From positions 1 through 50,680 of the forward strand of contig DDXZ01000001.1 in assembly GCA_002347295.1 (NCBI GenBank): a stretch of DNA of 50,680 bases. Direction: 5' to 3'. This stretch comes from Dehalococcoidia bacterium UBA2247 (GTDB lineage: Bacteria > Chloroflexota > Dehalococcoidia > UBA2247). Below, one piece after another: positions 3,076 to 42,964 of this stretch. Under the pieces are notes generated by a model. That model made no database searches. It saw nothing but the letters and a program-made list of their open reading frames with translations, and had not been told where the DNA came from. Each line of letters begins with the position of its first letter. Positions within the stretch are counted from its first letter, which is position 1. The position numbers and the translations under genes were made by a program.

Positions 3076-4653
3076 TCAGGCGTATTTTCGTTTAATCTTG
3101 CGCTGGAGCATTTCCGTGATGTGCTCGGCGACATGAGCGCCAAATTTTTCTGTAATCAACTGTAAATACACAGGGTTGCGGAAATATTCGTCAAAAGCCT
3201 GGTCGCGAAAACGTAAAACCTCAGCCGCAGAGAGGTGTTTGGTGGGGAGAGGCAAGGTCTCTTCAGCATATTGCGAATAGCCGTGCCATACTTCAGGTAA
3301 TTTAATGTCCTGTTGAATCGCCTCTTCATACAATGTGGAGCCGGGATAAGCCATGGCAGTATAGAAGTTGATATACTCAAAGTTATAAGCTTTTGCCATA
3401 TCAAGTGTCGCGCGCATCGTCTCCAGGTCATCATCAGGAAGACCGAAGATAAAATTACCGATAATAGAAATACCTGCCTCTTTCGTCATTTCAATTGCTT
3501 TTTGGGTGACATCTTCTTTCGTTTTCTTACGAACACCCTGGCGGACTATCTCACTGGCGGATTCAAAGCCATAAGCCAGCCAGTTAATTCCCGCCTGTTT
3601 CATTTTGCGCAGCATAGGAGCAGTGACGGTATCCACCCGGGCATAAGCCCAGATATTCAAATCATAACCACCGGCGATAATAAGGTCGCAGATACGGTTC
3701 ACCCGTTCTTCATCGAGAGCAAATAGTTCGTCGAGGAACTTGATATTTTGCACGCCGTATTTTTTCACCAGCAAATCAATCTCGGCGACTACCTTTTCCG
3801 GACTGCGGAGACGAATTCCGGGTTTACCGTTATAGAGTGCTCTCACATTGCAGTAGCTGCAATTGAAAGGACATCCCAGGCTGGTGTAAATAGCGGCATA
3901 GGGCTGCCTGCGGTCAAGATGAGCGAAACAGTGCCAGTTATGTGCCCGATACTTCTCCATAGGTAATAAATCCCACGCTGCAAAGGGCAATTCATCCGGG
4001 TTAACCAGAGGCGCCGGAGGGCTTGCGATAACCTTACCCTGACGAAGATACCAGAGGCCGGGAATGGTACAACCGCTGACATCTTTGCCTGCTTTTAATG
4101 CTTCCAGGAGAGGCAAAACAGTAGCAAACCCTTCGCCCTGGCAAACAAAATCCGCTTTTTCTTCTTTGAGAGTCCGTTCGGGAAGAGCTGATGTGTGCAG
4201 GCCGTTGAAAAACACCTTGATATGGGGAGCCTTTTCTTTAATTGAAGCGGCAACCTCGCCGGCGGCCGTCATTTTGGGAGTAGAGGAAGCGGAAGGATTG
4301 GAACCGAGGACAATAATTCCCGCCAGCAGAGGATTATACTCCGCAACCCGGGCGGCTGTTTGCTGCGGGTTGAGATTCTCCGCTTCGGCATCGATAATCT
4401 TTACCGAATACCCTTGTTCGCGGATATATGCTGCGAGCACGCCCGCCCAGAGCGGCGGTTCGATACCGGCGAGGGAAGCACCCAATCCGCCATAGACCTG
4501 TGTCCGTGCTCCAGGATTGACTAAAAGTAAATCAAGCTTTTGTTCCAACGGATATTCTTTAACCTTCCCAAGTATATTTTTTATTATTGTAACCAGCGCA
4601 GGATGCCGGTGGTGATGCTGGCAACATCCAGGCCAAGATGAGAATGTAAACAT
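3076..4653 (-). CDS. B12-binding-domain radical SAM enzyme (class B type)
   Basis: N-terminal Rossmann-like B12-binding region (LLLVNPGAR...) and the radical SAM cluster motif GCPFNCSYCNV. The annotated 5' end overlaps the upstream gene by 70 nt. The true start may be the internal TTG at 4548 (codon 36, giving ..EQKLDLLLVNP). Confidence 0.85.
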   Translation of the reverse strand: MFTFSSWPGCCQHHHRHPALVTIIKNILGKVKEYPLEQKLDLLLVNPGARTQVYGGLGASLAGIEPPLWAGVLAAYIREQGYSVKIIDAEAENLNPQQTAARVAEYNPLLAGIIVLGSNPSASSTPKMTAAGEVAASIKEKAPHIKVFFNGLHTSALPERTLKEEKADFVCQGEGFATVLPLLEALKAGKDVSGCTIPGLWYLRQGKVIASPPAPLVNPDELPFAAWDLLPMEKYRAHNWHCFAHLDRRQPYAAIYTSLGCPFNCSYCNVRALYNGKPGIRLRSPEKVVAEIDLLVKKYGVQNIKFLDELFALDEERVNRICDLIIAGGYDLNIWAYARVDTVTAPMLRKMKQAGINWLAYGFESASEIVRQGVRKKTKEDVTQKAIEMTKEAGISIIGNFIFGLPDDDLETMRATLDMAKAYNFEYINFYTAMAYPGSTLYEEAIQQDIKLPEVWHGYSQYAEETLPLPTKHLSAAEVLRFRDQAFDEYFRNPVYLQLITEKFGAHVAEHITEMLQRKIKRKYA

Positions 4654-5519
4654 TCTCTGCTGGCATACTGAAAAACGTACTGGTTCTCTGTTCCTAATCG
4701 TTTCAATCGTGATTGGCAGCCATTATCCGCCATAACTTCGGCAACAATACTGCCGATGCCGCCGGCAACCAGGTCTTCCGCCAGTGTCACCACCGGCTTA
4801 TTCTTTCCCATAACCTGGAGCAGTAAATTATCATTAACCGGACTGAGACGGTAAAGATCAACAATTGCAGCATCAATAGAGTGTTTGAGCAGTTCCTCTG
4901 TCACTTTAAATGCCTGGTGCACCATCATTCCGGAGGCGATAATAGTCATGTCTTTGCCTCGTTTTAGTAATGCCAGGCCGTCAGAAAAGTCATGCTTCTC
5001 TTCATAGCGTAAAGGAAACTTTTCCCGGTCCAGACGGATATATTTCGGCCCGGGGTCGCGGTAAGACATCCCGGCAAAGGCGGCGACCATAATATTATCC
5101 GAGGGATTATAGACAGTCATGCCGGGAAGAATGCGCATAACGGCAGCATCTTCAGTGGCGTGATGGGTGGGACCGGATGTAGAATAAGAATACCCTGCTC
5201 CTACGCCAACTGCAGTGACATGAAGTTTCATGCAGCATAAATCAAGTTTAATTTGCTCAAAGCAGCGTAAGGTGACAAAGGGAGCAATAGAGTAGATATA
5301 AACAATTTTACCGCTTAGAGCAAGACCGGCGGCAATAGTTACCATGTTCTGCTCCGCCACTCCGGCATTGATATACTGGCGGCTAAGGTCGGTCCGAAAT
5401 TTATCCAGACTGGGAGCGCCAAAATCACCGGTCAAAAGCATGACCCGGTCATCCTGACGTGCGATATCATACAGGGCATCAAAAAAGGCGTCTCTCATGC
5501 TGATATCAGCAATTTTCAT
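4584..5519 (-). CDS. Transketolase, C-terminal (pyrimidine-binding) subunit of a split transketolase
   Basis: 311-aa ORF with typical TktB-like sequence (GDFGAPSLDKF..., GVAEQNMV, GPTHHATEDAAVMR). It overlaps the N-terminal subunit gene by 14 nt. Confidence 0.85.
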   Translation of the reverse strand: MKIADISMRDAFFDALYDIARQDDRVMLLTGDFGAPSLDKFRTDLSRQYINAGVAEQNMVTIAAGLALSGKIVYIYSIAPFVTLRCFEQIKLDLCCMKLHVTAVGVGAGYSYSTSGPTHHATEDAAVMRILPGMTVYNPSDNIMVAAFAGMSYRDPGPKYIRLDREKFPLRYEEKHDFSDGLALLKRGKDMTIIASGMMVHQAFKVTEELLKHSIDAAIVDLYRLSPVNDNLLLQVMGKNKPVVTLAEDLVAGGIGSIVAEVMADNGCQSRLKRLGTENQYVFQYASRECLHSHLGLDVASITTGILRWLQ

Positions 5520-6369
5520 GGTCTGACCCCCTGTTTAATTCATTCTCTTTCTGCTGCAGCTCTTCTCGTGCCAGGGAAATGTATTTTCCGGAAACAGAAG
5601 TCGCATGCCAGAGAGGGATATTCTCCATAAAAGAGAGTCCTTTCCCTTTGGTGGTTTGCGCGATTAGAACCAGTGGTTTCTCTGACTTCCGGGAGCGGAA
5701 ATTTGCTAATGCCTGGAGAATATCAGGGAAAGAGTGCCCATCGATAACAGTGGCATCCCAGCTAAAGGATTGCCATTTTTCAGCGAAAGGGTTTAAACGG
5801 AGAAAATTCTCCGTAAAATCGGTAACTCCCAGAAAATTGCGGTCTACAATAGCCACCAAATTGTTCAGTTGGTGATGTCCGGCAAACATGGCTGCTTCCC
5901 AGACAGAACCTTCCTGACATTCTCCATCGCCCAGCAAAACAACCGTCATATATTGCTCTTTATTCATCTTCGCTGCCAGCGCCATGCCCGAACCCAATCC
6001 CAGTCCATGACCTAACGAACCGGCAACAACTTCTGTTCCCGGGATATTATTCTCGGCGATTGCTCCCAGTATACAATTTTCCTGACAGAATGTTTCCAGA
6101 TTATGCAGCGGGAAAAACCCCTGGTCTGCCAGTATGGGATACAGGCTGATAGCATGACCTTTACTCATAATAAAACGGTCCCGTTCCGGCCAGAGCGGAT
6201 TTTCGGGGTCAACTCTCAGGATACCGCCATAGTAGAGAGAAACGAGAATTTCTACACTGGAAAAGGCAGAAGCGAGGAATCCGGTATTAGCACGCACGCA
6301 CATTTCCAGTGTTTGCCGGCGCACCCAGTTCGCTTTTCTTTCCAGTTTTATTATTTCTTGCCCTGACAT
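5506..6369 (-). CDS. Transketolase, N-terminal (ThDP-binding) subunit of a split transketolase
   Basis: 287-aa ORF with the ThDP motif region GSLGHGLGLGSGMALA and LLGDGECQEGSVWEAAMFAGHHQLNNLVAIVDRN. Confidence 0.85.
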   Translation of the reverse strand: MSGQEIIKLERKANWVRRQTLEMCVRANTGFLASAFSSVEILVSLYYGGILRVDPENPLWPERDRFIMSKGHAISLYPILADQGFFPLHNLETFCQENCILGAIAENNIPGTEVVAGSLGHGLGLGSGMALAAKMNKEQYMTVVLLGDGECQEGSVWEAAMFAGHHQLNNLVAIVDRNFLGVTDFTENFLRLNPFAEKWQSFSWDATVIDGHSFPDILQALANFRSRKSEKPLVLIAQTTKGKGLSFMENIPLWHATSVSGKYISLAREELQQKENELNRGSDHENC

Positions 6370-6390
6370 ATATTTGTTCTCCTGAAACTC

Positions 6391-7383
6391 TTAAGATTTC
6401 TCGGGCTCGTAAAAAATTATCTGACTGCCCCGATTTTCAAATTGAAAGGGGACATATAGGAGCTTATTTAAACTCTTCTTGATTTGAGTTTGTACTTCAG
6501 GCGGCGCGAAGAACAAAATAAATCCCCCTCCGCCGGCACCTAAAAGTTTTCCTCCCAGGGCTCCGGCACTGCGAGCAGCAGTATAGATATCATCAATCTC
6601 TGTTGTGGATATCTTATTGGTCAGGCTTTTCTTAAGGCACCATGTTTCGTGGAGCAGCTTACCAAAATCCGTTAAGTCATTACCATTGAGGATGGAGATT
6701 GCCTGGAATACCATTTGATACATTTCATGCAATGTTTTCTTTTTATTAGGGGTCTCTTTTATCTGTTCCCCGGCAATTTCAGAAGCTCTGCGCGAGAAGC
6801 CGGTAAAAAACAACATGAGACTTTTCTGGAATAGCGCCAGTTTTTCACCATTGATAGTAATCGGCTTAACTTGAATGGATGGTTCTCCTTTTCCAATTTC
6901 AATTTGATTAAAGCCCCCGAATGCGGCCATAATCTGGTCCTGCGAACCCACATTTTCTTTAATCATCTTTTGTTCGATATGAATAGCATTGAGAGCCAGC
7001 TCTATTTTACCCGGGATAGTACCTTTCAAGGCGTAAAGGGCATTTAAAAGACCGACGGTAAAGGCCGAACTGGAGCCTAACCCGCTCATGGCAGGCAAGT
7101 CACCGTCGTGGTGTATCTCTACTCCCTGAGCGATATTCATGAAGCGCAGAGTTTCCCTTGCCGAGGGATGCTGTATTTCATCAATATTACGGACCTGCTC
7201 CATTCTGGAATAGATTATACGGTGCTTATGCTCAAAGAACGGTGGTAAATAGCGGCAGGTAATATAGCAATATTTATTGATGGTGGTGCCTAATACGGCA
7301 CCGCCGTTTTCCTCGTACCATACGGGATAATCGGTTCCACCACCGAAAAAAGAAATCCGAAACGGAGTCCGACTGATAATCAC
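6391..7383 (-). CDS. hddA: GHMP-family sugar kinase, D-glycero-D-manno-heptose 7-phosphate kinase-like
   Basis: N-terminus RTPFRISFFGGGTDYP...GGAVLGTTINKYCY and GHMP motif PAMSGLGSSSAF. It sits with gmhA and gmhB in the same operon direction. Confidence 0.65.
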   Translation of the reverse strand: MIISRTPFRISFFGGGTDYPVWYEENGGAVLGTTINKYCYITCRYLPPFFEHKHRIIYSRMEQVRNIDEIQHPSARETLRFMNIAQGVEIHHDGDLPAMSGLGSSSAFTVGLLNALYALKGTIPGKIELALNAIHIEQKMIKENVGSQDQIMAAFGGFNQIEIGKGEPSIQVKPITINGEKLALFQKSLMLFFTGFSRRASEIAGEQIKETPNKKKTLHEMYQMVFQAISILNGNDLTDFGKLLHETWCLKKSLTNKISTTEIDDIYTAARSAGALGGKLLGAGGGGFILFFAPPEVQTQIKKSLNKLLYVPFQFENRGSQIIFYEPEKS

Positions 7384-9971: not shown

Positions 9972-10536
9972 ATACGATATGACCGATAGTGATATGTGCT
10001 TCCTGGATACGAGCCGTATTGTGGGAAGGTACGGCTAAGACCAGGTCTGCTATCTCTGCCATCTTTTCCCCATTAGCTCCGGTGAGAACGATAGTCCTGG
10101 CTCCTTTACTTCGGGCAGCTTCCAGTGCTTCCAGTACGTTGCGCGAATTACCACTGGTGCTGATACCGATTACGATGTCTTTTTCCGTCACCAGCGCTTC
10201 CACCTGACGGCTAAACACCATATTGTAATCATAATCGTTGGCTACCGCTGTTAATATGGAGGTGTTGGTAGTGAGAGCAATGGCGGGAAGGGCTTGTCTC
10301 TCTAATTGGAATCGTCCTACCAGTTCCCCGGCAATATGTTGTGCATCAGCCGCACTACCACCATTACCGCACAGAACTACCTTACCATTATTTTTGAACA
10401 CATCAATAACAAGATTCACCATGAGTTCTATATCACCAGCCATAGTCTGTGCTATGGTTGCCTTTAAGCGGGCATTTTCTCTGAGCCTGCTTATAATTTC
10501 ACTTTTAACAGTGTTTTTATGGTACATATTATTCAT
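9916..10536 (-). CDS. gmhA: Phosphoheptose isomerase (SIS domain)
   Basis: GNGGSAADAQHIAGELVGRF, ISTSGNSRNV and VLTG motifs. The track ORF extends to 10635, but Met34 (MNNMYHK, ATG at 10536) is the more plausible start. Confidence 0.8.
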   Translation of the reverse strand: MNNMYHKNTVKSEIISRLRENARLKATIAQTMAGDIELMVNLVIDVFKNNGKVVLCGNGGSAADAQHIAGELVGRFQLERQALPAIALTTNTSILTAVANDYDYNMVFSRQVEALVTEKDIVIGISTSGNSRNVLEALEAARSKGARTIVLTGANGEKMAEIADLVLAVPSHNTARIQEAHITIGHIVCELVEAQLFSNDKETKRI

Positions 10537-10644
10537 TGAGCACGGCCCCGGATTACTTTCAATCAATAAAACATTATAGTGCACAGTAATACTAAGGTAA
10601 AGGCTTTTATTGTTCCGCGACCCGTATTGCGTCAAATTAAACTG

Positions 10645-11470
10645 TTACCGTAGTCCTTGATGTTGCATATTAGTATTACCGGCATTTACCGGATGACGTG
10701 CCAGTTGCCACAGTTGTTCCAGGAGGTCATTAATCTGTTTCAGAAGAAGTACCGGATTGAGCCTCTGGTAAATATCCGCCAGCTCTTTTCTTTTTGCTTC
10801 TGTGAGCACACCGAATGCCAGTAACAGGCTGATAGGGTGTCTGTGCTTTATCATAGACCTTATGCACCCGGGCTCCATTCCTTGTCTTACAAAGAAGCTT
10901 CATTGTGGGCTGGAAGAAGTTAATATAGAGTCTGACCAGCAAGTAGAGCTTTTCCAAGCAGTGATATGCTGCATGGGAGGTATAACCGGTCATAGCCCAC
11001 CAGACGGCGCAGACGTTACCATTCTTCTGTTCGATATGGCAGCTATCATTCTTCTTATAGGAGCGGGAATGGGTAAAAGTGATTCTCTCCTTTTGACAAT
11101 AAGCATAAAGCTGATGGTTAATAAACTCGCTACCCTTATCCGAATCCAGTCCCAGTAAAGGAAAAGGAAGCCGTTGACGCATCTTGTGGATAGCACCACC
11201 AACACGCTGCTATCCTTTTTCCCATACCGGGAGACATTCTGTCCAGCCACTGGCAATGTCTACTCCACAGAGAGTATTCAGGTAAAAACCTTCCGTACGC
11301 TCACCGCAGTGAGCAACTAAATCTGCTTCGAGAAAACCTGGCTTATTCTCCTGCCAGTCAGCAAAGGTCCTCACCGGGATGGCACCCTTGAGCCAGTTCC
11401 CGGCTGCACCGGCTGACTTCCCCGTAAGATATTTTTCGGCCGATTAGCCGGTGTGACATCATGGCCAAGG
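10645..11470 (-). pseudogene. DDE (rve/integrase-core) transposase, inactivated
   Basis: My translation of the minus strand gives ...KGAIPVRTFADWQENKPGFLEADLVAHCGERTEGFYLNTLCGVDIATGWTECLPVWEKG*QRVGGAIHKMRQRLPFPLLGLDSDKGSEF.... There is an in-frame TAG. A frameshift near 10860 separates the body (10730-11182) from the C-terminal piece (10645-10878). The N-terminal part is degraded. Confidence 0.7.
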
Positions 11471-11643
11471 TGCGGGTACTGATCCCACTTAAGAACATCA
11501 TTATATGCCCTGTTACCTACTATCGTAAGTCTAATAAGGAAGTAGAAGAAAGCAAGGAGCGATAATAAACCGAGCGTGCTAAGCCCTAACAGAGTGTTGA
11601 AAACCAGAGGCAACGGCTTAAAGCCCTGTTTTTCAACACCCTG

Positions 11644-13140
11644 CTAGGATTCTGTGGGCGCGCTTCCGCTTCCTCCAATATTTTGATCTGCCCGTGAGTT
11701 ATCGGCTGGTGGTTCCGCAGGTTGTACCGTTATAACAATAGGGTTGTCCGGATCTCCCTGTCCCGGAAAAGCAACAACTACCGTTCCTTCTGGTGCTGCG
11801 GTAACGGTAGTATTACTCCCGGTATTATCTGTAGTATTGCTTTGTGACGGTGGCCCGGGGTCGGTCTGCCCTGATTCTGCCGTGGAACCATCTGACACCT
11901 GTTGTCCCGGTGTAATGGAAGGTTCCGCAGCATTATTATCCAGGGAGATTTGAGGTGATATACTCTGTCCCTGGGGTTCCGCTGTATTAATAAAATTATT
12001 ACCGGCAGTGTCCCCGGCGTTTCCCTTACTCTGAGTTGTTGGTGTCTGTGGTGTTTCTGATGTTGTATTCTGGTTGGTATCCGCTGGCTTATCAGAATTG
12101 TCCGTAGTAGGGGTTTCTGGTCCAGCTATAGCGGCTCCGGTTATTTCTTTTCCAAACTGCTGTAATCTCTCATATTCCTGTTGAGTATTCCCCGCCAGAG
12201 CACCATTACTATTAGCGGCTTCCGTATTGGCGCGATTTAACCTGTTTCCCATTACTTCGCGATTTAGTTGCTCCGCCCTGCCGGGATTTATCTCAGCTAA
12301 GTTTTGCATCGCTCTGACATGACTATTAAGTGCAATCTCTTTAGTCTGAGTTAGTAGTTCTCGGGCAAACTCAGGCATATGATCTTCCAGAGAATCCAGC
12401 CTGTTGAAATGGTCCAGTATATTGAGCGTAATGGCTTCCATGGCCATTTCTCTTTTGCTTGATTTCTCGGCTTTAGTAATTGCCAGATTGAGATTTTTCT
12501 CATATCCGGAAATAGCGAGAGCGATTTTTTCTTCTTTGGATACAATATCAGGAGCCATTTCTTCAAGATAGGTCCGGGTGAAGTTCAGGGTAAATCCGGA
12601 AGCGACAACCTCTACCGGCTCGGTCGGCAACCCCAGTATTGCTTCTATTTCATCAAGGCGTGTACTGGCAAATTTTAGCTCTAAATCTACTTCCGCTGCA
12701 TCATCAATCGTAATAACACGCTGTAATTGCTCTGTATTCAGCTTAACAGGATAAAGATTGTCTCCGGGCAGACTGGATTGAGCCGCATAAGCGACACCGG
12801 TTCCGGAGATAACGATAACCAGCAATACCGCTACTACGGTTGTGACGGCACGGGACCATCCTGCAAGCCAGTAAGGTTTTGCCAGCGGCCATAATCCTTT
12901 ACGCTCCCTTTTTCGTACCTGATCGGCATATATCTCTTCCATCAGCTTAACTCTGGTACTGATTTTAAATTGAGCGGAAGGGCCGGTGGTTAGCGGCTCG
13001 TTAATATTAATCGCCATACGCAGCAGCGGCTCTAATTCCTGACGGAGATCAGGATGTTGATTAAGACATTCAGCAAGCTCAATCTTACCTGCCTTGATAT
13101 CATCTATACATTGAATGAGGATTTCTTCTATATTATCCAC
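11644..13140 (-). CDS. Anti-sigma factor-like membrane protein with a long Pro/Thr/Ser/Asn-rich C-terminal tail
   Basis: Its GTG start shares one nucleotide with the sigma-factor stop (TAGTG), suggesting translational coupling. It has an N-terminal helical anti-sigma-like segment, one TM segment (AVTTVVAVLLVIVISGTGVAYA) and an extracytoplasmic domain. Confidence 0.7.
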   Translation of the reverse strand: MDNIEEILIQCIDDIKAGKIELAECLNQHPDLRQELEPLLRMAININEPLTTGPSAQFKISTRVKLMEEIYADQVRKRERKGLWPLAKPYWLAGWSRAVTTVVAVLLVIVISGTGVAYAAQSSLPGDNLYPVKLNTEQLQRVITIDDAAEVDLELKFASTRLDEIEAILGLPTEPVEVVASGFTLNFTRTYLEEMAPDIVSKEEKIALAISGYEKNLNLAITKAEKSSKREMAMEAITLNILDHFNRLDSLEDHMPEFARELLTQTKEIALNSHVRAMQNLAEINPGRAEQLNREVMGNRLNRANTEAANSNGALAGNTQQEYERLQQFGKEITGAAIAGPETPTTDNSDKPADTNQNTTSETPQTPTTQSKGNAGDTAGNNFINTAEPQGQSISPQISLDNNAAEPSITPGQQVSDGSTAESGQTDPGPPSQSNTTDNTGSNTTVTAAPEGTVVVAFPGQGDPDNPIVITVQPAEPPADNSRADQNIGGSGSAPTES

Positions 13141-13706
13141 TATGGATCCTTTTCTACAATCTTTTTTAATTCTATCAACCCGCGATGCAGAATTACCCGT
13201 ACTGCGCCTTCACTTTTATCCAGTGATGCCGCTATTTCGGCATAAGAAAAATCTTCAATAAATCGCAGCAGAATTACCTGCTGCTGCTCTCCTTTTAATT
13301 GTCTGATTGCCTTACGAATTTGCTCTTTTTCATAATGAGATTCAGCCGATTGGGCGGGATCATTACCAGAAGCAAGATCAATACTATCGATATCCACCGC
13401 CCGATTATTTTTTCCGGAGCGGTAATGATCAATTACCAGATTATGGCTTATCTTGATGAGCCAGGCGAGAAAAGAAGCGGTAGTTTTCTTATATTGCCCG
13501 ATCACCTTCCAGGCTTTGAAAAAAGTCTGTTGTGTGATATCTTCAGTATCAGGAATACTGCCTACCCGATAATAAACATGCCGGTATACACGGTCAACAT
13601 ACATATCGTAGAGACCTCCGAAAGCACTGGCATCTCCTCCTATTGCTTTCTCAATTAGTAAATTAATTTCCTCAGTTGTTACCCTGCTATCCAATTGTTT
13701 CTGCAA
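13140..13706 (-). CDS. ECF-type sigma-70 family RNA polymerase sigma factor
   Basis: Region 2 (DTEDITQQTFFKAWK...) and region 4 (FSYAEIAASLDKSEGAVRVILHRGL) signatures. TTG start, preceded by AAGAGGAA. Confidence 0.9.
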   Translation of the reverse strand: MQKQLDSRVTTEEINLLIEKAIGGDASAFGGLYDMYVDRVYRHVYYRVGSIPDTEDITQQTFFKAWKVIGQYKKTTASFLAWLIKISHNLVIDHYRSGKNNRAVDIDSIDLASGNDPAQSAESHYEKEQIRKAIRQLKGEQQQVILLRFIEDFSYAEIAASLDKSEGAVRVILHRGLIELKKIVEKDP

Positions 13707-13720
13707 GTACTGTTCCTCTT

Positions 13721-13750
13721 ATTAAACGTATCATCTGAAAAATTGTTACA
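13721..13750 (-). promoter_or_regulatory. ECF-type promoter candidate for the sigma/anti-sigma operon (autoregulation)
   Basis: The minus strand reads TGTAACAA-N14-CGTTTAAT. The -35-like box and spacing match the three plus-strand sites. The leader to the TTG start is very short, which lowers confidence. Confidence 0.5.
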
Positions 13751-13756
13751 AACACT

Positions 13757-13786
13757 TGTAACAAAAGATCCTCCGCTACGTTATTA
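13757..13786 (+). promoter_or_regulatory. ECF-type promoter candidate upstream of the small secreted-protein gene
   Basis: TGTAACAA-N14-CGTTATTA, 31 nt upstream of the ATG at 13818. Its -35 box forms a 9-bp inverted repeat with the divergent site (ttgttacaa-acac-ttgtaacaa). Confidence 0.6.
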
Positions 13787-13817
13787 TATCAAACCATTAT
13801 ATTTTAAGGAGGATCAC

Positions 13818-13973
13818 ATGAAAAAAATAGTTATTGCTCTGTTAGTAGTTCTGACACTGGTTATTATTATTGCTGCTCCTGCTTTCGCAGGGGGTGACAA
13901 GGTAAGGGGAGATGACGGGCAGGGTGCTGTCAATCAGGTGCAGATAATGGATCCCCCTCCTTTCCAGCCATAA
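13818..13973 (+). CDS. Small secreted protein (51 aa; signal peptide ending AFA, about 27-aa mature part)
   Basis: GGAGGA RBS 7 nt before the ATG. MKKIVIALLVVLTLVIIIAAPAFA|GGDKVRGDDGQGAVNQVQIMDPPPFQP. Followed by an intrinsic terminator. Confidence 0.6.
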   Translation: MKKIVIALLVVLTLVIIIAAPAFAGGDKVRGDDGQGAVNQVQIMDPPPFQP

Positions 13974-14046
13974 AACCGCTATCGGGGTTTCCTGATTTCC
14001 CGGAAAAAATATATATATATTAAGAAATTGTTTCATCTTTCAGATG

Positions 14047-14077
14047 AAAACCGCCTGTAACAAACAGGCGGTTTTTT
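14047..14077 (+). terminator. Intrinsic terminator
   Basis: Stem aaaaccgcctgt / acaggcggtttt with a 5-nt loop and a T-run. Confidence 0.65.
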
Positions 14078-14085
14078 CGTTATTA
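14056..14085 (+). promoter_or_regulatory. ECF-type promoter candidate upstream of the lipoprotein gene
   Basis: TGTAACAA-N14-CGTTATTA. The -35 box lies in the loop and descending arm of the preceding terminator. Confidence 0.55.
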
Positions 14086-14135
14086 ATTAATGAAGATTTG
14101 TTTGTAAAAAGACGGAAATGAAGGAGGAAATAATA

Positions 14136-14762
14136 ATGAAGAAAAGATTGCTGGTAATTCTAACATTAGCTTCATTGCTTTTATTGGCGATAGGCTGTGG
14201 AGGTTCACCTGGCCCCGCAACATCCGTACCGACGGTATCTCCTACCCCGACATCAATACCGGCAGAAAAATTATTTCTGGAGCTTACGGAGCCTTCTGGT
14301 GAAGCAATATCCAATGTATCGCGTATTCCTGTATCCGGGAAAACTTTGCCTGATGCTGTGGTAAGTATTAACGGAATAATCGCGGCCGTAGATTATCAGG
14401 GTATATTCCACGGCGAAGTCAACCTTGAAGCCGGCCCTAATATCATAGAAATAGTAGCGAGTGATTTTTATGGTAATGAAAAATCATCTATTTTGACCGT
14501 GATTTATGTTGCCGCACTACCCCTGACTGTTACCGAACCCCTTAATAATGCAGTAGTGATATCACCATTATTGACCGTAAAAGGAATCACTAATGCCGAT
14601 GCTGTTGTCAGCATAAACGGGAAGATTGTATCCGTAGATGCATCCGGTAATTTTAGCGAACCCGTAACTCTGGAGGCAGGACCAAATCTCATCGAAGTAT
14701 TAGCCAGCGACTTCTATGGTAATTCGGCTAATGTTATGGTTACCGTGATATACAGCCCTTGA
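14136..14762 (+). CDS. Lipoprotein with two tandem Ig-like repeat domains
   Basis: AAGGAGGA RBS. MKKRLLVILTLASLLLLAIGC lipobox. Two repeats of about 70 aa (...DAVVSINGIIAAVDYQGIFHGEVNLEAGPNIIEIVASDFYGN... and ...DAVVSINGKIVSVDASGNFSEPVTLEAGPNLIEVLASDFYGN...). Confidence 0.8.
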   Translation: MKKRLLVILTLASLLLLAIGCGGSPGPATSVPTVSPTPTSIPAEKLFLELTEPSGEAISNVSRIPVSGKTLPDAVVSINGIIAAVDYQGIFHGEVNLEAGPNIIEIVASDFYGNEKSSILTVIYVAALPLTVTEPLNNAVVISPLLTVKGITNADAVVSINGKIVSVDASGNFSEPVTLEAGPNLIEVLASDFYGNSANVMVTVIYSP

Positions 14763-14766
14763 AAAT

Positions 14767-14796
14767 GTAACAAATAAACCAGGTTTTCGTTATTAC
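14767..14796 (+). promoter_or_regulatory. ECF-type promoter candidate upstream of the DUF5666-like gene
   Basis: TGTAACAA-N14-CGTTATTA, 53 nt upstream of the ATG at 14850. Confidence 0.55.
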
Positions 14797-14849
14797 TTAT
14801 GAGAAAATCAAACAAAAAAAGACAATCAAATTTCAGGAGGATATAAACA

Positions 14850-15758
14850 ATGAAAAAGTCAAGAATTATTTTAGGAATATTAATCAGCGCAGCACTATTG
14901 GTCACTAGCGGAAACGCAGTACTGGCTCAGAGTAGTGAGGCTACACCTACGCCAGAAGTAGTGGCCCCGGCGGAACAACTGTATCAGGGAATTACAGGTA
15001 TTGTGGGCACTGAGAGTGATCTCGCCGGTGGTACTATCAAGATTGAAACCAAAAGCCTCGGCGAGGTAGCTGTTCTTCTTAATGATAGCACTATTTATAA
15101 AGTACCCGGACAGGATGAGGCCACCAGGAACGATATAGAAATAGGGAGCCGATTGGCTATTCTGGCCACGGTAAATGAAGACGGAAGCTATACTGCGGTA
15201 CGGGTGATGATTATACCTGACGTCGCAACACGAAAGCATATCAGTGGCATAGTAGTATCCGTAGAAAACAAGATAATGACTGTTATCAATGCTGCCGGGG
15301 AAACTATGACAGTTGAACTCCCCGAAGGGGTAAAGGGGGGAACAGTAGGCGAATTTATATCAACATCCGTACGGAAATCTCCGGGTAAAGAGACTCCTGT
15401 CGCCAGTGGAACACAGACAGCAGCGGAAGTCCAGACCAGGTTACAAACCCATCTGAATACTGCAGCGGGACAGCAAGCCGCTACACAGGCCGAGGTACAA
15501 ACAAAAGAGCAGACTATGGCACGATTAGGAGAGAAACTGGAGGGATTAATGCTCCGCAATAAAGATGTGCTGGAGCAGGTAATGGCCAAAGCACCTGAGG
15601 CGGCTAAAGCTTCTATTCAGGCCGCGATTGGTAATTGTGAGCAGAGAATGGAACAAGCTCGTCAAACTATCCAGAACGCCTATGCTGCGGCCGGTATGTC
15701 CCAAAATGGGACACAGGAAGGGTCTCAATCCGGCGCTGCCGGAGCTCAGGGAAAATAA
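14850..15758 (+). CDS. Secreted protein, DUF5666-like beta-rich N-terminal part plus Ala/Gln-rich helical C-terminal part
   Basis: Signal peptide MKKSRIILGILISAALLVTSGNAVLA. RBS AGGAGGA. 302 aa. Confidence 0.7.
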   Translation: MKKSRIILGILISAALLVTSGNAVLAQSSEATPTPEVVAPAEQLYQGITGIVGTESDLAGGTIKIETKSLGEVAVLLNDSTIYKVPGQDEATRNDIEIGSRLAILATVNEDGSYTAVRVMIIPDVATRKHISGIVVSVENKIMTVINAAGETMTVELPEGVKGGTVGEFISTSVRKSPGKETPVASGTQTAAEVQTRLQTHLNTAAGQQAATQAEVQTKEQTMARLGEKLEGLMLRNKDVLEQVMAKAPEAAKASIQAAIGNCEQRMEQARQTIQNAYAAAGMSQNGTQEGSQSGAAGAQGK

Positions 15759-15788
15759 TAAGATATTACTGATAGACATTACTTGAAA

Positions 15789-15811
15789 GGGCAGGTTTAT
15801 TAAACCTGCCC
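15789..15811. repeat. REP-type hairpin (gggcaggttt-att-aaacctgccc), also placed to act as a terminator
   Basis: Same stem as the REPs flanking the RAYT gene at 42.4-43.0 kb. Followed by ttatttttt. Confidence 0.65.
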
Positions 15812-16349
15812 TTATTTTTTATATTAATAAAATAATAGATTAACTCTTCTGGAATAAATAAGTACCAAATCAAAAAACAAAATCAGTATGGCCTGTTACT
15901 GATCACGAGGACCAGTAGAGAAGATGCAAAACATTGAAGTAAGTAGTACAATAAAAGCCAAGTATACGGCTTTTTGGGCTGTCACGTGACTGCTCCTGAA
16001 ACAATCAAGTCAAGAACTCTAACTAAAAGGTGGACCAATAACCTGCAGAGGCCACTGAGTTACAGAGATAAGGAAATATATTAAAATGGGTACTAAATCT
16101 CTTGAAGAACTAAAGGTATTTATCGAGAGGATAAATAAGACAAATAAAAAGAGTCGTAAACATACTGGCAATAACGAGGGGCGCAGCTGGAAGAAGAAGA
16201 AGAAGTAACCCTACCCCCGCTATTAATATGCTCCAGCTTGGAGCCCTACCGCTAGTTCAGTAAACTACTATCGTTTTACCTTTGACAGGATATAATCAAG
16301 CTCAATGGGTATGTTTCGGTCATTTTGCTTGACCGTGAATATTTTTATA

Positions 16350-17132
16350 TCACTTCAGTTGAAAAAGACGGTTAACATTCTCTGTGGTTATTTGTTCTGC
16401 TTCAGTGAGAGGTATTTCCAGTATCTGTGCCATTCGCTTCAGAGTTAGAGCCACATATGATGGCTCATTGCGGCTGCCGCGGTATTGTTGCGGAGGGAGA
16501 AACGGACAATCGGTTTCCACGAAGATTCTATTCTGTGGAATACTGCGTATGATATCAGTCATATGGCAAGCGTTGGGATAAGTGATTGTTGCTGTGAACG
16601 ACAGATAGAATCCCATGGCAATATATCTTTGTGCTTCGCTAATATCTCCGCTGAAACAATGGATTACCCCCGGTGCCCGGCTCTCCGGGCGGCGTTGTTT
16701 TTGCCAGGTATCCAGTATGTTAATTACTTCGTTCTGTGCCTGTCGGGAGTGAATGATGACCGGAAGGTCCAGTTCCCCGGCTAAATCAAGTTGCTGCCGG
16801 AAGACACCTAGCTGTATTTCACGTGGTGACAGGTTGCGGTAGTAATCCAGTCCGATTTCGCCGATAGCAGCCACCTTATTATCCCGGGCCATTTTGCGTA
16901 AGGTAATTATATCTTCCCTGCCCACCCCGGCGGCATCGTGGGGATGGAATCCCACAGCAGGAATTATTGCACCATACTTCTTTGCCAGTTCTATTGAGAC
17001 CCGGCTTGATTTCAGGTCAATCCCTACGTTTATTATTTTCCCTACGCCGGATTCTATGGCACGAGCGATAACATAGTCACGGTCGGACCGGAAGGCATCC
17101 ATATCCAGGTGGGCATGAGAATCAATGATCAA
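16350..17132 (-). CDS. TatD-family metal-dependent hydrolase/DNase
   Basis: IIDSHAHLD..., GEIGLDY, IHSR, ETDCPFLPP. 260 aa. Overlaps the metG stop by 4 nt. Confidence 0.9.
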   Translation of the reverse strand: MIIDSHAHLDMDAFRSDRDYVIARAIESGVGKIINVGIDLKSSRVSIELAKKYGAIIPAVGFHPHDAAGVGREDIITLRKMARDNKVAAIGEIGLDYYRNLSPREIQLGVFRQQLDLAGELDLPVIIHSRQAQNEVINILDTWQKQRRPESRAPGVIHCFSGDISEAQRYIAMGFYLSFTATITYPNACHMTDIIRSIPQNRIFVETDCPFLPPQQYRGSRNEPSYVALTLKRMAQILEIPLTEAEQITTENVNRLFQLK

Positions 17133-18796
17133 TCTTCGCTGCGCAATCTTGCCATCTCCTGCTCAACAACTTCTTCTTCCAGCTTGTTAAAAAGCGGTGT
17201 GGGTGACGGCAGTTTTTGTCCGGCAGGTAGATGATGGATGCTCCAGCCGTCATCTTCGAGACGGCCTTCGCATCCCAGTAACTGATGCAGTTTCGCCGAA
17301 CTAAAGGGAATAAAGGGATATAGTATTGTTTTAAGGCAGGAGATAATGGAAAGAGCGACGTTTAATGTTGTTGCCGTAGTGGTCCGGTCGGTCTTGATAG
17401 TCTTCCAGGGGGACTTTTCTTCCAGGTAACGGTTCCCTTCCTGGGCCAGAGTCATAGCCAGACGTATTCCTTCCCGGAAATGACATTGGGCCAGGGCTTT
17501 ATCCACAATGGAAAGAGTGTTTTCTGCCAGAGAGAGTAGTGCCTTGTCCCGTTCATCCTGTTCCCCGGCGGGAGGGACACTATTGTCAAAGTTGCGGCAG
17601 GTTATGGCGAGGACACGGTGTACCAGGTTGCCGTAAGTTGCCACCAGTTCATTATTGTTACGGCGGAGCCATTCCGACCACGAGAAATCAGCATCTCCCG
17701 TTTCCGGCATATTTGCGGAAAGCATATAACGCAGCGGATCGGCGGCGTAGCGTTCCAGATAATCCGGCAGCCAGACCGCCCAGTGACGGCTGGTGGAAAA
17801 CTTTTTCCCTTCCAGAGTGAGAAATTCGTTGGCCGGGACGTCAAAAGGTAGATTTAATCCTCCATATCCCATTAACATGGCCGGCCAGATGATAGCATGG
17901 AAGGGGATATTGTCTTTGCCGATAAAGTAATATGTTTTACCATCTCCCTGCCAGAAGGGACGCCAGGCATCCTCTTTGCCCTGTAGCTGTGCCCATTCCA
18001 TACTGGCGGAGAGATAGCCGATAACTGCCTCAAACCAGACATAGATACGCTTATTTTCAAATCCGGGTAAGGGTATGGGAATACCCCATTCCATATCACG
18101 GGTAATAGCGCGGTCTTTCAAGCCACTTTTGAGATAGTTAGTGACGAAATTCAAGACGTCCGGCCGCCAGTGAGTTTGCTGCTTTACCCAGGCGAGCAGT
18201 TTATTTTCAAAGGCACTGAGGCGGAGAAAGAAATGTTCTGATTCCCGTGCTTCCGGGGTAGTCTGGCATAATTTACAGCGTGGGTTGATTAAATCAAGAG
18301 GATTGAGCGGTTTCCCGCAAATATCACACTGGTCGCCGCGTGCTCCTTCATAACCACAGTGGGGACATTTTCCTTCGACATAACGGTCAGGAAGATAACG
18401 TTGACAGTGTGGACAGTAGAGCAAATTCATACTGTCTTTATAGATGTAATCTTTTTTCAATAGTGTGAGAAAAATATCCTGAGTAACCTTAATATGATTT
18501 TCTGTTTCAGTATTAGTATAGAGGTCGAAACTGATGCCCATACGTTCCCAGCAGTCATAGAATTGCTGGTGATAGCGGTTAGCTATTTCCCGGGGTGAGA
18601 CTCCTTCTTGTTCGGCATGTATTGTAATCGGTGTCCCGTGCATGTCGGAACCGGAAACCATGAGAACTTCATTTCCCTTTAGACGGTGATAGCGGGCGAA
18701 AATATCCGCGGGCAGATATGCCCCGGCAATGTGACCTAAATGCAGCGGGCCGTTGGCATAAGGCCAGGCTACTCCAATTAATATATGTTCACTCAA
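17129..18796 (-). CDS. metG: Methionine--tRNA ligase
   Basis: Class I HIGH motif (PYANGPLHLGH), zinc knuckles (CPHC...CDIC) and a KMSKS-like KFSTS motif. 555 aa. Confidence 0.95.
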   Translation of the reverse strand: MSEHILIGVAWPYANGPLHLGHIAGAYLPADIFARYHRLKGNEVLMVSGSDMHGTPITIHAEQEGVSPREIANRYHQQFYDCWERMGISFDLYTNTETENHIKVTQDIFLTLLKKDYIYKDSMNLLYCPHCQRYLPDRYVEGKCPHCGYEGARGDQCDICGKPLNPLDLINPRCKLCQTTPEARESEHFFLRLSAFENKLLAWVKQQTHWRPDVLNFVTNYLKSGLKDRAITRDMEWGIPIPLPGFENKRIYVWFEAVIGYLSASMEWAQLQGKEDAWRPFWQGDGKTYYFIGKDNIPFHAIIWPAMLMGYGGLNLPFDVPANEFLTLEGKKFSTSRHWAVWLPDYLERYAADPLRYMLSANMPETGDADFSWSEWLRRNNNELVATYGNLVHRVLAITCRNFDNSVPPAGEQDERDKALLSLAENTLSIVDKALAQCHFREGIRLAMTLAQEGNRYLEEKSPWKTIKTDRTTTATTLNVALSIISCLKTILYPFIPFSSAKLHQLLGCEGRLEDDGWSIHHLPAGQKLPSPTPLFNKLEEEVVEQEMARLRSED

Positions 18797-24654: not shown

Positions 24655-25077
24655 TCCTCATCACATAAAGATAACAGGCACCACCGACGTATAATAAAAA
24701 CATGGAACAACGGAAAGTTAAGATATTTCTCGCGGTGATGCTATGTATGAAGGAGAAGACCTCCTGCCTCTTAAATTCAATAGGCATAACATACCCTACC
24801 AGCACAGGAAACAGCAATTTCCCCACTGGCACAGGTTTTCTGGTTTACGGACTTTCTTTTTACCATATCAGACGGAAAGTTCTTGATAGTCCCTCCGGCT
24901 CGACACTTAACAAAAGAGACCTATAACAAAACCCTCCGTCTATTTCTGTATATGGTATGTAACAAAATACTCTACAGACTGTCTACCAAATAGGAAGAAG
25001 CACAGCTCTCCCCCGCTACATCCGTAAAACCAGATAACTCACCTCTCCTTTAAGAGGCGCAGGTCAGTCTCTTTTAA

Positions 25078-25433: not shown

Positions 25434-25506
25434 GGGGATATAGCTCAGTTGGGAGAGCGCTGCATTCGCATTGCAGAGGTCGGGGGTTCGACTCCCCCTA
25501 TCTCCA
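25434..25506 (+). tRNA. tRNA-Ala (anticodon CGC)
   Basis: Cloverleaf folded by hand. Acceptor GGGGATA/TATCTCC contains the G3:U70 alanine identity pair. Anticodon loop TTCGCAT, T-loop GGTTCGACT. CCA not encoded. Confidence 0.92.
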
Positions 25507-25541
25507 GTTAAAAATTGAACAGGAGGGTGATTAGGATTCAT

Positions 25542-25615
25542 GCCCCTGTAGCTCAGAAGGATAGAGCAGCGGTTTCCTAAACCGCGAGTCGGGCGTTCGA
25601 ATCGCCCCAGGGGTA
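25542..25615 (+). tRNA. tRNA-Arg (anticodon CCU)
   Basis: Acceptor GCCCCTG/CAGGGGT, anticodon stem GCGGT/ACCGC, loop TTCCTAA, T-arm GGGCG-TTCGAAT-CGCCC. CCA not encoded. Confidence 0.9.
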
Positions 25616-25659
25616 CTGTGAGCGGACAGCCCGAGGTTCTCCCTGGGGTGTAATGAGTT

Positions 25660-25736
25660 AGGAGTGTAGCTCAGATTGGTAGAGCAGCGGTCTCCAAAAC
25701 CGCCGGTCGCGGGTTCGAATCCTGCCACTCCTGCCA
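25660..25736 (+). tRNA. tRNA-Trp (anticodon CCA)
   Basis: Acceptor AGGAGTG/CACTCCT, anticodon loop CTCCAAA, T-loop TTCGAAT. 3' CCA encoded (25734-25736). Confidence 0.9.
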
Positions 25737-25784
25737 GTTTTGTACTGGCAGAACAGGGGAGAAAAGATTAAACTCCGGATATGG

Positions 25785-25871
25785 GCCGAGGTGGTGGAAT
25801 AGGCAGACACGCTGTCTTGAGGGGGCAGTGAGCGAAAGCTTGTAGGAGTTCAAATCTCCTCCTCGGCACCA
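25785..25871 (+). tRNA. tRNA-Leu (anticodon GAG)
   Basis: Acceptor GCCGAGG/CCTCGGC, anticodon stem CTGTC/GGCAG, loop TTGAGGG, long variable arm, T-arm AGGAG-TTCAAAT-CTCCT. CCA encoded. Confidence 0.9.
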
Positions 25872-25890
25872 ATATAGGCAAGTGTAACGG

Positions 25891-25965
25891 GCGGAAGTAG
25901 TTCAGTGGTAGAATGTCTCCTTGCCAAGGAGAAGGTCGCGAGTTCGAATCTCGTCTTCCGCTCCA
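25891..25965 (+). tRNA. tRNA-Gly (anticodon GCC)
   Basis: Acceptor GCGGAAG/CTTCCGC, anticodon loop TTGCCAA, T-arm GCGAG-TTCGAAT-CTCGT. CCA encoded. Confidence 0.92.
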
Positions 25966-26081
25966 ATTAATTATAAAAACCATTTATTCCCACTCATGTT
26001 ATCATTGCGCGGATAGCCTGTCCCGTACTTGATACGGGATGGCAATCTGATGGAGGTGAAATATAAGGTAGTCGGTAGTAT

Positions 26082-26154
26082 GGCGATGTGGCCAAGAGGT
26101 TAAGGCGGGGGTCTGCAAAACCCCTATTCGGCGGTTCGAATCCGCCCGTCGCCT
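26082..26154 (+). tRNA. tRNA-Cys (anticodon GCA)
   Basis: Acceptor GGCGATG/CGTCGCC, anticodon stem GGGGT/ACCCC, loop CTGCAAA, T-arm GGCGG-TTCGAAT-CCGCC. CCA not encoded. Confidence 0.9.
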
Positions 26155-26160
26155 TTTATT

Positions 26161-26298
26161 TTAATAATCAAATCTCAAACACCAATAACCAAACAATCAC
26201 CAATAAACCAAATCTCCAACTAGGTGTTTGACTGTTGGTCATTGAATATTGTAATTTGTTTAGTGCTTGGGAATTGGTACTTGGTCATTTAACCACCG
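26161..26298. repeat. A+C-arm / G+T-arm imperfect palindrome (family copy 2), between tRNA-Cys and tRNA-Leu
   Basis: Left arm aatcaaatctcaaacaccaataaccaaacaatcaccaataaaccaaatctccaac, right arm gtttgactgttggtcattgaatattgtaatttgtttagtgcttgggaattggtacttggtcattt. The reverse complement of 26248-26270 (ccaagcactaaacaaattacaat) matches 2943-2968, apart from one substitution and a 3-nt indel. Confidence 0.6.
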
Positions 26299-26384
26299 GC
26301 CGGGGTGGCGGAACAGGCAGACGCGACGGACTTAAAATCCGTTGGGAGTAATATCCCGTGTGGGTTCGACCCCCACCCTCGGCA
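26299..26384 (+). tRNA. tRNA-Leu (anticodon UAA)
   Basis: Acceptor GCCGGGG/CCTCGGC (one G:U pair), anticodon stem ACGGA/TCCGT, loop CTTAAAA, long variable arm, T-arm GTGGG-TTCGACC-CCCAC. CCA not encoded. Confidence 0.9.
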
Positions 26385-42427: not shown

Positions 42428-42964
42428 ATGCAATCTCGTCATCCCTCAATGAGATTAAGAAATTATGATTATACCAGGCCAAATGCATATTTTGTTACTA
42501 TTTGTACTTACCACCGACAGATACTTCTGGGGAAAATAAATAATGGGATGATGGATTTGAATTCTTATGGTGATATTGCATTATCATGCTGGGAGAAGAT
42601 ACCGGAACACTATTCTGCGATTACATTGGCTTCATTTACAGTTATGCCTAATCATATTCATGGAATTATAATTATAGGTGATAATGATATTCGGGCAGGT
42701 TTAAAACCTGCCCCTACAAAATACTCGCTTTCTGAAATTGTGCGTGCATTCAAGACGTTTTCGGCACGAGATATAAATCAGGCAAGAAAGACCCCGGGTA
42801 GTCCTGTCTGGCAGAGATATTTTTATGAACATATAGTACGGTCGGAAGAAGAATTCAATCAAATTTCAGAATATATTATTAATAATCCGTTAAAATGGAT
42901 ACTGGACAAAGAAAACCCGGAAAGAAAAAATTCAGTGGATATTCTGCCATTTGAGCATGGATAA
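42428..42964 (+). CDS. REP-associated tyrosine transposase (RAYT; IS200/IS605-like Y1 HUH enzyme)
   Basis: HUH motif in VMPNHIHGII. C-terminal Tyr region WQRYFYEHIVRSEEE. 178 aa. Flanked by cognate REP hairpins. Confidence 0.8.
   Translation: MQSRHPSMRLRNYDYTRPNAYFVTICTYHRQILLGKINNGMMDLNSYGDIALSCWEKIPEHYSAITLASFTVMPNHIHGIIIIGDNDIRAGLKPAPTKYSLSEIVRAFKTFSARDINQARKTPGSPVWQRYFYEHIVRSEEEFNQISEYIINNPLKWILDKENPERKNSVDILPFEHG
42693..42717 (-). repeat. REP hairpin inside the RAYT coding sequence (inverted orientation)
   Basis: gggcaggtttaaaacctgcccctac is the exact reverse complement of the 42369-42393 REP. It is translated in frame as RAGLKPAPT, just after the HUH motif. Confidence 0.8.

Follow-up and report, generated by a model that had tools for sequence, protein, structure and literature searches.

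The locus and its bipartite motif

In a 50,680-base stretch of contig DDXZ01000001.1 from Dehalococcoidia bacterium UBA2247 (hereafter the window), a gene for a sigma factor of the extracytoplasmic function (ECF) type and a membrane-protein gene directly behind it lie divergent from three genes for exported proteins, and one two-part motif recurs in front of the sigma operon and of each of the three exported-protein genes. Here, we assess the proposal that these four sites are promoters of the sigma factor encoded beside them. The source, a Dehalococcoidia bacterium that has not been cultured, was seen in metagenomes of hydrocarbon and oil-facility origin. The features of the locus, in window coordinates, are the following:

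11644 to 13140, minus strand: putative anti-sigma gene, 498 amino acids (aa); its GTG start overlaps the sigma stop (TAGTG)
13140 to 13706, minus strand: ECF sigma factor gene, 188 aa, TTG start, with Sigma70_r2 and r4 domains only
13704 to 13720, minus strand: sigma ribosome-binding site AAGAGGAA (13713-13720, abutting the -10 box) and TTG start codon (13704-13706), as read from the sequence
13721 to 13750, minus strand: predicted promoter of the sigma/anti-sigma operon, -35 box TGTAACA at 13744-13750, -10 box CGTTTAAT at 13721-13728
13757 to 13786, plus strand: predicted promoter of the 51-aa peptide gene, TGTAACAA-N14-CGTTATTA
13818 to 13973, plus strand: gene for a secreted 51-aa pre-peptide; signal peptide ending in AFA, mature part of about 27 aa (GGDKVRGDDGQGAVNQVQIMDPPPFQP), Shine-Dalgarno sequence AAGGAGG upstream
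14043 to 14081, plus strand: terminator-like hairpin and U-tract after the peptide gene; 13-bp stem at 14046-14076 with 6 G-C pairs, then TTTTTT
14056 to 14085, plus strand: predicted promoter of the lipoprotein gene, exact motif
14136 to 14762, plus strand: lipoprotein gene, 208 aa, lipobox LAIGC, two Ig-like Glucodextran_B domains
14766 to 14795, plus strand: predicted promoter of the OB-fold gene, exact motif, beginning 4 nt past the lipoprotein stop
14850 to 15758, plus strand: gene for a secreted OB-fold protein ("DUF5666-like"), 302 aa, with signal peptide, two OB barrels and a C-terminal helical hairpin
15787 to 15813, plus strand: terminator-like hairpin closing the plus-strand set, 12-bp stem followed by a T-run

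Domain searches upheld the gene calls of the original prediction, namely an ECF sigma factor, a membrane partner and three exported products. The motif TGTAACAA-N14-CGTT has four exact matches within 1.1 kb (13725-13750 on the minus strand; 13757-13782, 14056-14081 and 14766-14791 on the plus strand) and none elsewhere in the window, compared with a mean of 0.00 and a maximum of 0 in 100 dinucleotide-preserving shuffles. Extended to 30 nt, the minus-strand unit (13721-13750) ends in CGTTTAAT and the three plus-strand units (13757-13786, 14056-14085 and 14766-14795) end in CGTTATTA. The claim of four copies made from the sequence alone thus stands, save that the third plus-strand copy had been placed at 14767, one base off. 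All four sites lie 15-55 nt 5' of a start codon that has a Shine-Dalgarno sequence. By itself, TGTAACAA occurs six times in the window against 1.67 expected; as had been claimed, those at 24958 and 32553 lack a correctly spaced CGT box. The spacers of the four sites have no sequence in common, which marks the motif as a bipartite signal and not as copies of a repeat element. The perfect 9-bp inverted repeat TTGTTACAA-ACAC-TTGTAACAA, which had been described as formed by the two divergent -35 boxes, is indeed present between the divergent genes at 13743-13764. When the window was scanned with a position weight matrix (PWM) built from 117 distinct homologous sites, only these four sites reached at least 14 bits, with 26.8 bits for the lipoprotein-gene promoter, 23.8 bits for the OB-fold-gene promoter and 17.3 bits for the peptide-gene site, the weakest of the four.

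The sigma protein contains only sigma-70 regions 2 and 4 (Pfam Sigma70_r2, 55.9 bits, residues 32-98; Sigma70_r4_2, 56.8 bits, residues 128-178), the composition of an ECF (group 4) sigma factor, and it exceeds the cut-offs of both Pfam Sigma70_ECF (27.1 versus 21.1 bits) and NCBIfam TIGR02937 sigma70-ECF (98.6 versus 42.9 bits). No second sigma gene was found in the window. A predicted promoter with an AAC -35 and a CGT -10 element about 16-17 nt apart stands 5' of the sigma factor's own gene, in keeping with the ECF class. The TTG start and Shine-Dalgarno sequence of the sigma gene are kept in orthologues, in which, as in the window, AAGAGGAA follows directly 3' of the -10 box and the TTG comes 6-7 nt later, a conserved arrangement of CGTT-N6-AGAGGAA-N6/7-TTG. 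The usual ECF geometry fixes the distance from the -10 box to the transcription start, and since the -10 box here abuts the ribosome-binding site and then the TTG, we infer that the leader of the sigma mRNA would be only about 11-13 nt long.

Conservation of the sites across related loci

The motif was followed in 84 orthologous loci (404 kb; handles beginning with L below) with sigma proteins 50-64% identical, which were gathered by scanning genomes and metagenomes with the sigma protein as query. Across these loci, TGTAAC-N16/17-CGTT occurs at 131 sites against 1.35 expected. Eighty of the 84 loci include at least 75 nt 5' of the sigma gene, and in 74 of these an exact match lies about 40 nt 5' of the sigma start (55 distinct sequences), with a spacer of 16 nt in 56 loci and 17 nt in 18; the other six have near variants, five of them with one or two mismatches and L064 with a shortened spacer. 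Fifty-six further sites were found, 55 of them on the sigma strand and all within about 2.6 kb of the sigma gene, and there was none in the 82.7 kb lying more than 3 kb from a sigma gene. The claim that the motif is specific to this locus therefore stands for the 50.7-kb window and for the 404 kb of related loci, which is the range covered, rather than genome-wide.

The units conserved across relatives are TGTAACA and CGTT(A/T)(A/T), so that of the 8-mer first taken as the -35 unit the TGTAACA part holds and the eighth base varies. Two promoter flavours could be distinguished: TGTAACA(T/A)T...CGTT(T/A)A, directly adjoining the ribosome-binding site, in the sigma promoters, and TGTAACAA(A/T)...CGTTAT(A/T) in the target promoters, with CGTTAT in 36 of 40 distinct target sites. 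The window agrees exactly with both; a difference in promoter strength or kinetics may lie behind the two flavours. Conservation does not extend to the inverted repeat (the divergent promoters of L064 lie about 110 nt apart), which most likely arose simply because two -35 boxes stand back to back.

At short range, the four sites were compared with those of the closely related locus L096, whose anti-sigma protein is 90% and whose OB-fold protein is 84% identical; its genes are arranged divergently in the same way, and each of the four sites is found at the equivalent place. Counted by eye over the boxes TGTAACA and CGTT(A/T)TTA/TAAT, the boxes show no changes and the spacers 11 substitutions, three of them in the sigma promoter and four in the peptide promoter; the eighth base of the TGTAACAA 8-mer is changed in the L096 sigma promoter. 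A different gene stands 5' of the L096 lipoprotein gene, and of the hairpin that follows the peptide gene in the window the 3' arm, which is spacer, is kept there and the 5' arm is absent, which marks the promoter as the conserved element and the terminator as a local addition. L096 also has an extra gene between its peptide and lipoprotein genes (3219-3683), encoding a very hydrophobic 154-aa repeat protein with a weak DUF3096 match; it has no motif of its own and is absent from the window, where the terminator hairpin stands instead.

The exported products and the DUF5667 partner

Homologues of the 51-aa peptide, 57-63% identical, were found in the sigma loci L018, L060 and L064, with a mature part of the form GGDKVRG..GQGAVNQVQ.MDPPPFQP, and L096 has a 51-aa gene at the equivalent position. 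The L064 homologue is divergent from the sigma gene and lies behind a one-mismatch variant, TGCAAC-N17-CGTT, and in L018 and L060 the homologue comes after a motif-driven gene. The hairpin at 14043-14081 (-20.8 kcal/mol, z -6.7; none of 200 shuffles was equally stable) combines a GC-rich stem, a U-tract and a position 3' of a stop codon, as expected of a Rho-independent terminator, and is likely the terminator of the peptide gene. The 14056 promoter is nested in it: the -35 box forms the stem top and loop, and the spacer forms the 3' arm and U-tract. An Rfam search of 10000-17500 returned sub-threshold chance matches only.

The lipoprotein matches Pfam PF09136 with 83 bits in two stretches and has a homologue of 66% identity in L013. 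The 302-aa protein scored 19.2 bits against DUF5666 (PF18914), below the cut-off of 27, and its AlphaFold2 model (predicted local distance difference test, pLDDT, 76), with strands at 45-190 and helices at 191-280, retrieved tandem OB folds with Foldseek (Mpa inter-domain, CusF, CcmE). Its 34 homologue clusters are all from Chloroflexota/Dehalococcoidia and all unnamed, no precomputed Pfam domain was listed for these homologues, and a literature search for "DUF5666" yielded nothing relevant. The lipoprotein and OB-fold genes always occur as a pair, with the motif 5' of the pair in L013/L092, L093, L095 and L096; in L013 and L093 there is no separate site between the lipoprotein gene and the OB-fold gene behind it. 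Tandem sites about 100 nt apart precede the lipoprotein gene in L013/L092 (4393 and 4494) and L093 (5165 and 5264), with no open reading frame (ORF) between them, and may be what is left of a lost peptide gene, act as a tandem promoter or belong to a short RNA.

The 498-aa partner of the sigma factor has a helical cytoplasmic N-terminal domain, one transmembrane (TM) helix, a DUF5667 outer domain and a low-complexity tail. DUF5667 (PF18915) was detected at residues 123-168 with 33 bits against a Pfam cut-off of 27 and is present in all 78 homologues of the protein, and the counterpart of its gene follows the sigma gene in 79 of the 84 orthologous loci. The AlphaFold2 model places helices at 2-16, 22-46 (kinked) and 56-80 ahead of a TM helix at 90-113, with a pLDDT of 74. 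Neither a zinc-binding HxxxCxxC motif nor a class I domain was detectable in the protein, and the NCBIfam "antisigma" model gave a weak match only (E 0.0019). Public annotation calls such partners "DUF5667 domain-containing protein" or "hypothetical", and a literature search for "DUF5667" found no paper with the term. From its position, translational coupling and topology, we infer that the DUF5667 protein is an anti-sigma factor.

In the closest relatives, the gene right after the anti-sigma gene is itself preceded by the motif and encodes a secreted protein of about 315 aa (DUF5667, 52 bits) that is paralogous to the outer domain of the anti-sigma protein. In about 30 more distant loci, a complete TGTAAC-N16-CGTTAT lies inside the anti-sigma ORF, in codons for A-V-T-K-W-x-W-x-R-Y. 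Both sets lie outside the window:

Secreted DUF5667 paralogue sites: L001:7921, L017:3493, L018:6895, L042:6908, L047:4975 and others
Intragenic sites: L002:6764, L039:1191, L046:5752, L055:5661, L086:2163 and about 25 more loci

The window anti-sigma gene has no intragenic site, and a search of the window for a separate secreted DUF5667 paralogue found none, with IS481-like transposase debris at that position. The anti-sigma ORF is continuous in 30 of the 31 intragenic cases, and the codons GTA-ACA...CGT-TAT are invariant while the spacer residues vary. This set was picked by a pattern that covers the -35 codons, which leaves only the -10 and the K-R-R/ATG codons as unbiased; at the -10 box, R is CGT in all cases and Y is TAT in 96%. 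At 44 nt past the intragenic site comes AAGAGGAGG (K-R-R) and then an invariant in-frame ATG that opens the TM helix, after which the outer domain is DUF5667 (or DUF4382). This suggests that the intragenic sites could drive a sigma-induced membrane isoform of the DUF5667 protein that would lack the sigma-binding domain.

Mobile-element traces are spread over the 50 kb. Short ORFs in different frames lie 3' of the anti-sigma gene (10645-11613, minus strand), one of them with a weak IS481-family transposase match (E 3.4e-4), and since L096 has an intact 220-aa rve transposase gene at this position, the window's copy is what remains of a decayed insertion sequence. Two further traces, both on the plus strand, are a truncated Mutator-family transposase gene (459-1163) and an IS200-like (Y1_Tnp) transposase gene (42428-42964). 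Elsewhere in the window are seven clustered tRNA genes (Ala, Arg, Trp, Leu, Gly, Cys, Leu; 25434-26384, plus strand) and, in the gap of about 590 nt between the OB-fold and TatD genes, a lysine-rich ORF of 40 aa that ends in KKKKK (16086-16208, plus strand).

A proposed autoregulated BldN-like module and its alternatives

Among 109 matching NCBIfam models, the best for the sigma protein is TIGR02952 "BldN family" with 149 bits, which is below the family cut-off of 206.45 bits; the next best is the SigM family with 98.7 bits. Its best relative in the PDB is 6dxo_A (E 2e-28; common signature AFGxLYDxYxDxVYRxxYYRVG), which we take to be the RsbN-BldN complex, although the RsbN-BldN paper cites 6C03 and the literature had no mention of 6DXO. 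The second-best solved relative is SigW (5wuq, E 7.6e-17). The Streptomyces sigma-BldN/RsbN system is the nearest family model for the window sigma and appears to supply its nearest solved structure, and the site that BldN is reported to recognize at bldMp1, CGTAAC-N16-CGTTGA (PMC2375139), shares core sequences and spacing with the window sites, TGTAAC-N16-CGTT(A/T), which conform to the BldN-family pattern xGTAAC-N16-CGTT. That a BldN site has the same -35 core, spacing and -10 core is independent support for the adjacent sigma factor as the reader of these sites. BldN has been assigned to ECF121, for which no motif is given (PMC7826278).

The likeness extends to the partner and the outputs. 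Like the window partner, the anti-sigma factor RsbN crosses the membrane once, and its cytoplasmic part, short and helical, has about 117 aa (PMC6101532), compared with about 85 aa in the window partner. The anti-sigma domain of RsbN is of the three-helix type (class III), and the window model has three main helices before the TM helix (pLDDT 74); no sequence or fold similarity between the two domains was found by profile search or Foldseek. The BldN regulon includes chaplins and rodlins (PMC6101532) and that of the window a peptide, a lipoprotein and an OB-fold protein, both sets being small secreted surface proteins. Like rsbN, which has its own BldN-dependent promoter (PMC6101532), many relatives of the window locus have a site before or inside the anti-sigma/DUF5667 gene. 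A similar arrangement was seen in two Patescibacteria metagenome-assembled genomes (MAGs) with sigma proteins 28-35% identical (L006:6633 and L007:6725), where the membrane-protein gene that follows the sigma gene is separated from it by a stretch with TGTAACAAATAC...CCGTC, as in bldN-rsbN, and no site was found 5' of the sigma gene.

The systems also differ. BldN is a proprotein (PMC7826278), whereas the window sigma has no pro-sequence, with region 2 beginning near residue 17-32, about 16 residues before it and a conserved start position. Homologues of chaplins, rodlins and bldM are not involved in the window locus, bldN is described as BldD-controlled whereas the window sigma gene itself carries the motif, and the window host belongs to a non-sporulating anaerobic Dehalococcoidia lineage of hydrocarbon and sediment metagenomes. 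The Bacillus subtilis ECF sigma factors (SigW with RsiW, SigX and SigM) are alike in general design, with sigma2 and sigma4 domains, a co-transcribed membrane anti-sigma factor, an autoregulated AAC/CGT promoter and an envelope-protein regulon. SigX recognizes TGTAAC-N17-CGAC, and the -10 elements of SigW (CGTA) and SigX (CGAC) differ from the CGTT of the window; compared with the B. subtilis ECF anti-sigma factors, the window partner has neither HxxxCxxC nor a detectable class I domain, and its outer domain is DUF5667.

We propose that the BldN-like ECF sigma factor of the locus itself reads all four sites as promoters, which would form an autoregulated module with three exported-protein outputs, and place the probability of this reading, which rests on sequence comparison, at roughly 0.85. 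The ECF regulon reading of the original prediction is supported by footprints at long and short range and by the likeness to the BldN site. In this module, RNA polymerase with the sigma factor (13140-13706) would contact TGTAACA at -35 through domain 4 and both bind and open CGTT(A/T) at -10 through domain 2. As gene order, the stop/start overlap and topology suggest, the co-translated DUF5667 protein would, in the resting state, use its cytoplasmic N-terminal domain to keep the sigma factor at the membrane; by analogy with other ECF systems, an envelope signal passing through the DUF5667 outer domain would inactivate the anti-sigma factor. Free sigma factor would then transcribe its own operon from 13721-13750, giving positive feedback through an mRNA whose short leader starts at about the ribosome-binding site, and, from three separate promoters, the genes for the 27-aa mature peptide, the tandem-Ig lipoprotein and the tandem-OB/coiled-coil protein. 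With the peptide-gene terminator built into the lipoprotein promoter, each gene would be its own unit. ECF sigma factors usually autoregulate and are encoded beside regulators and targets, and their general promoter has AAC in the -35 and CGT in the -10 element (PMC7826278), in agreement with the architecture originally invoked. The module resembles this generic design in autoregulation, in co-encoded regulator and targets, and in a group-specific bipartite promoter; its regulatory logic is textbook ECF design, and no general concept is changed by it (PMC7826278).

Several observations weigh against this proposal. None of the public RNA runs searched contains the window, the sequence of which appears in DNA metagenome runs only, and a run search with L092 found only 5% of its words. 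Metatranscriptome contigs on the relative L042 show its sigma, anti-sigma and motif-driven DUF5667 genes to be expressed in sediments and soils, and those of three of the four runs leave the intergenic promoter region uncovered; contig ends at 6899, 6963 and 6981, compared with a predicted start near 6941, define no start site, one contig starts 9 nt 5' of the predicted -35 box, and others cross the sigma promoter. A profile of 20 anti-sigma N-terminal domains found nothing in PDB sequences or Pfam, and the AlphaFold2 model of that domain found nothing in the PDB by Foldseek at E <= 0.001. In L094, a lipoprotein/OB-fold pair (5140-6879, about 50% identical) adjoins groES/groEL with neither motif nor sigma gene on the fetched stretch, which shows that these genes are not always under this sigma factor and that the link is frequent, not obligatory. 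One of ten shuffled windows reached 17.2 bits with the PWM, close to the 17.3 bits of the peptide site, which also fits a weak sigma-70-like pattern (GTAACA-18-TATTAT, 13758-13787, 9/12). Finally, L002 and L004, from the same MAG (T3Sed10_156R1), are paralogous sigma/anti-sigma loci with near-identical motifs, so that a reader other than the adjacent sigma factor is conceivable.

This last observation bears on the improbable alternative that the sites are real ECF promoters read mainly by, or shared with, a paralogous ECF sigma factor encoded elsewhere in the genome. Cross-talk between the L002 and L004 paralogues is possible (in L002, a site at 3361 is followed by a second anti-sigma-like gene), and the sigma and target promoters differ systematically in the bases flanking their cores. 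Yet both flavours have identical cores and spacing, the window holds no other sigma gene, and in all loci examined the motif accompanies this sigma gene, with no site more than 3 kb away in 83 kb. We consider it very unlikely that the boxes are instead operator half-sites, for example for a dimer on TTGTTACAA-N4-TTGTAACAA: the perfect 9-bp inverted repeat between divergent genes and the partly palindromic TGT-AACAA-ACA at 14056 would fit, but the repeat is not conserved (promoters about 110 nt apart in L064), most loci have a single oriented copy, an invariant CGTT partner always lies 16-17 nt away on one side, 55 of the 56 extra sites are oriented like the following gene, and the sigma gene is the only regulator gene conserved in the locus.

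There is similarly little chance that these are ordinary housekeeping sigma-70/SigA promoters that share sequence by accident. A consensus scan does list the site at 13758-13787 noted above, and CGTTATTA is AT-rich like a -10 box; however, sigma-70-like sites are no commoner in the window than in shuffles (10 versus 11.6), and in relatives CGTT is invariant whereas the would-be TAnnnT bases vary (TTAAGC, TTTAGT, TTATAC). The transposase genes and remnants nearby might suggest that the motif recurs by chance or is a piece of some dispersed repeat or mobile element, but none of 100 shuffles gives any match, the spacers are unrelated, and the position relative to start codons is kept in at least 80 independent loci. 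The shuffles, the 131 versus 1.35 sites and the fixed position before sigma genes effectively refute such an origin.

Beyond the promoter assignment, we entertain as a tentative and somewhat doubtful possibility that the module is a Dehalococcoidia-wide counterpart of BldN-RsbN, with a new DUF5667 type of anti-sigma factor, surface-protein output and, in about 30 members, an intragenic feedback or decoy layer. We know of no other ECF system with a layer of this type.

Dehalococcoidia are abundant, mostly uncultured anaerobes of sediments and of hydrocarbon- or organohalide-impacted sites, and to our knowledge almost nothing is known of how their transcription is regulated. The proposed module gives a first confident, testable sigma-to-promoter assignment in this class, and it yields a promoter model built on 117 distinct sites together with a small predicted regulon of envelope proteins. 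The DUF5667 family, so far annotated by domain only, gains a functional label as a probable anti-sigma factor, and the orthogonal pair of promoter and sigma factor could be usable as a genetic part.

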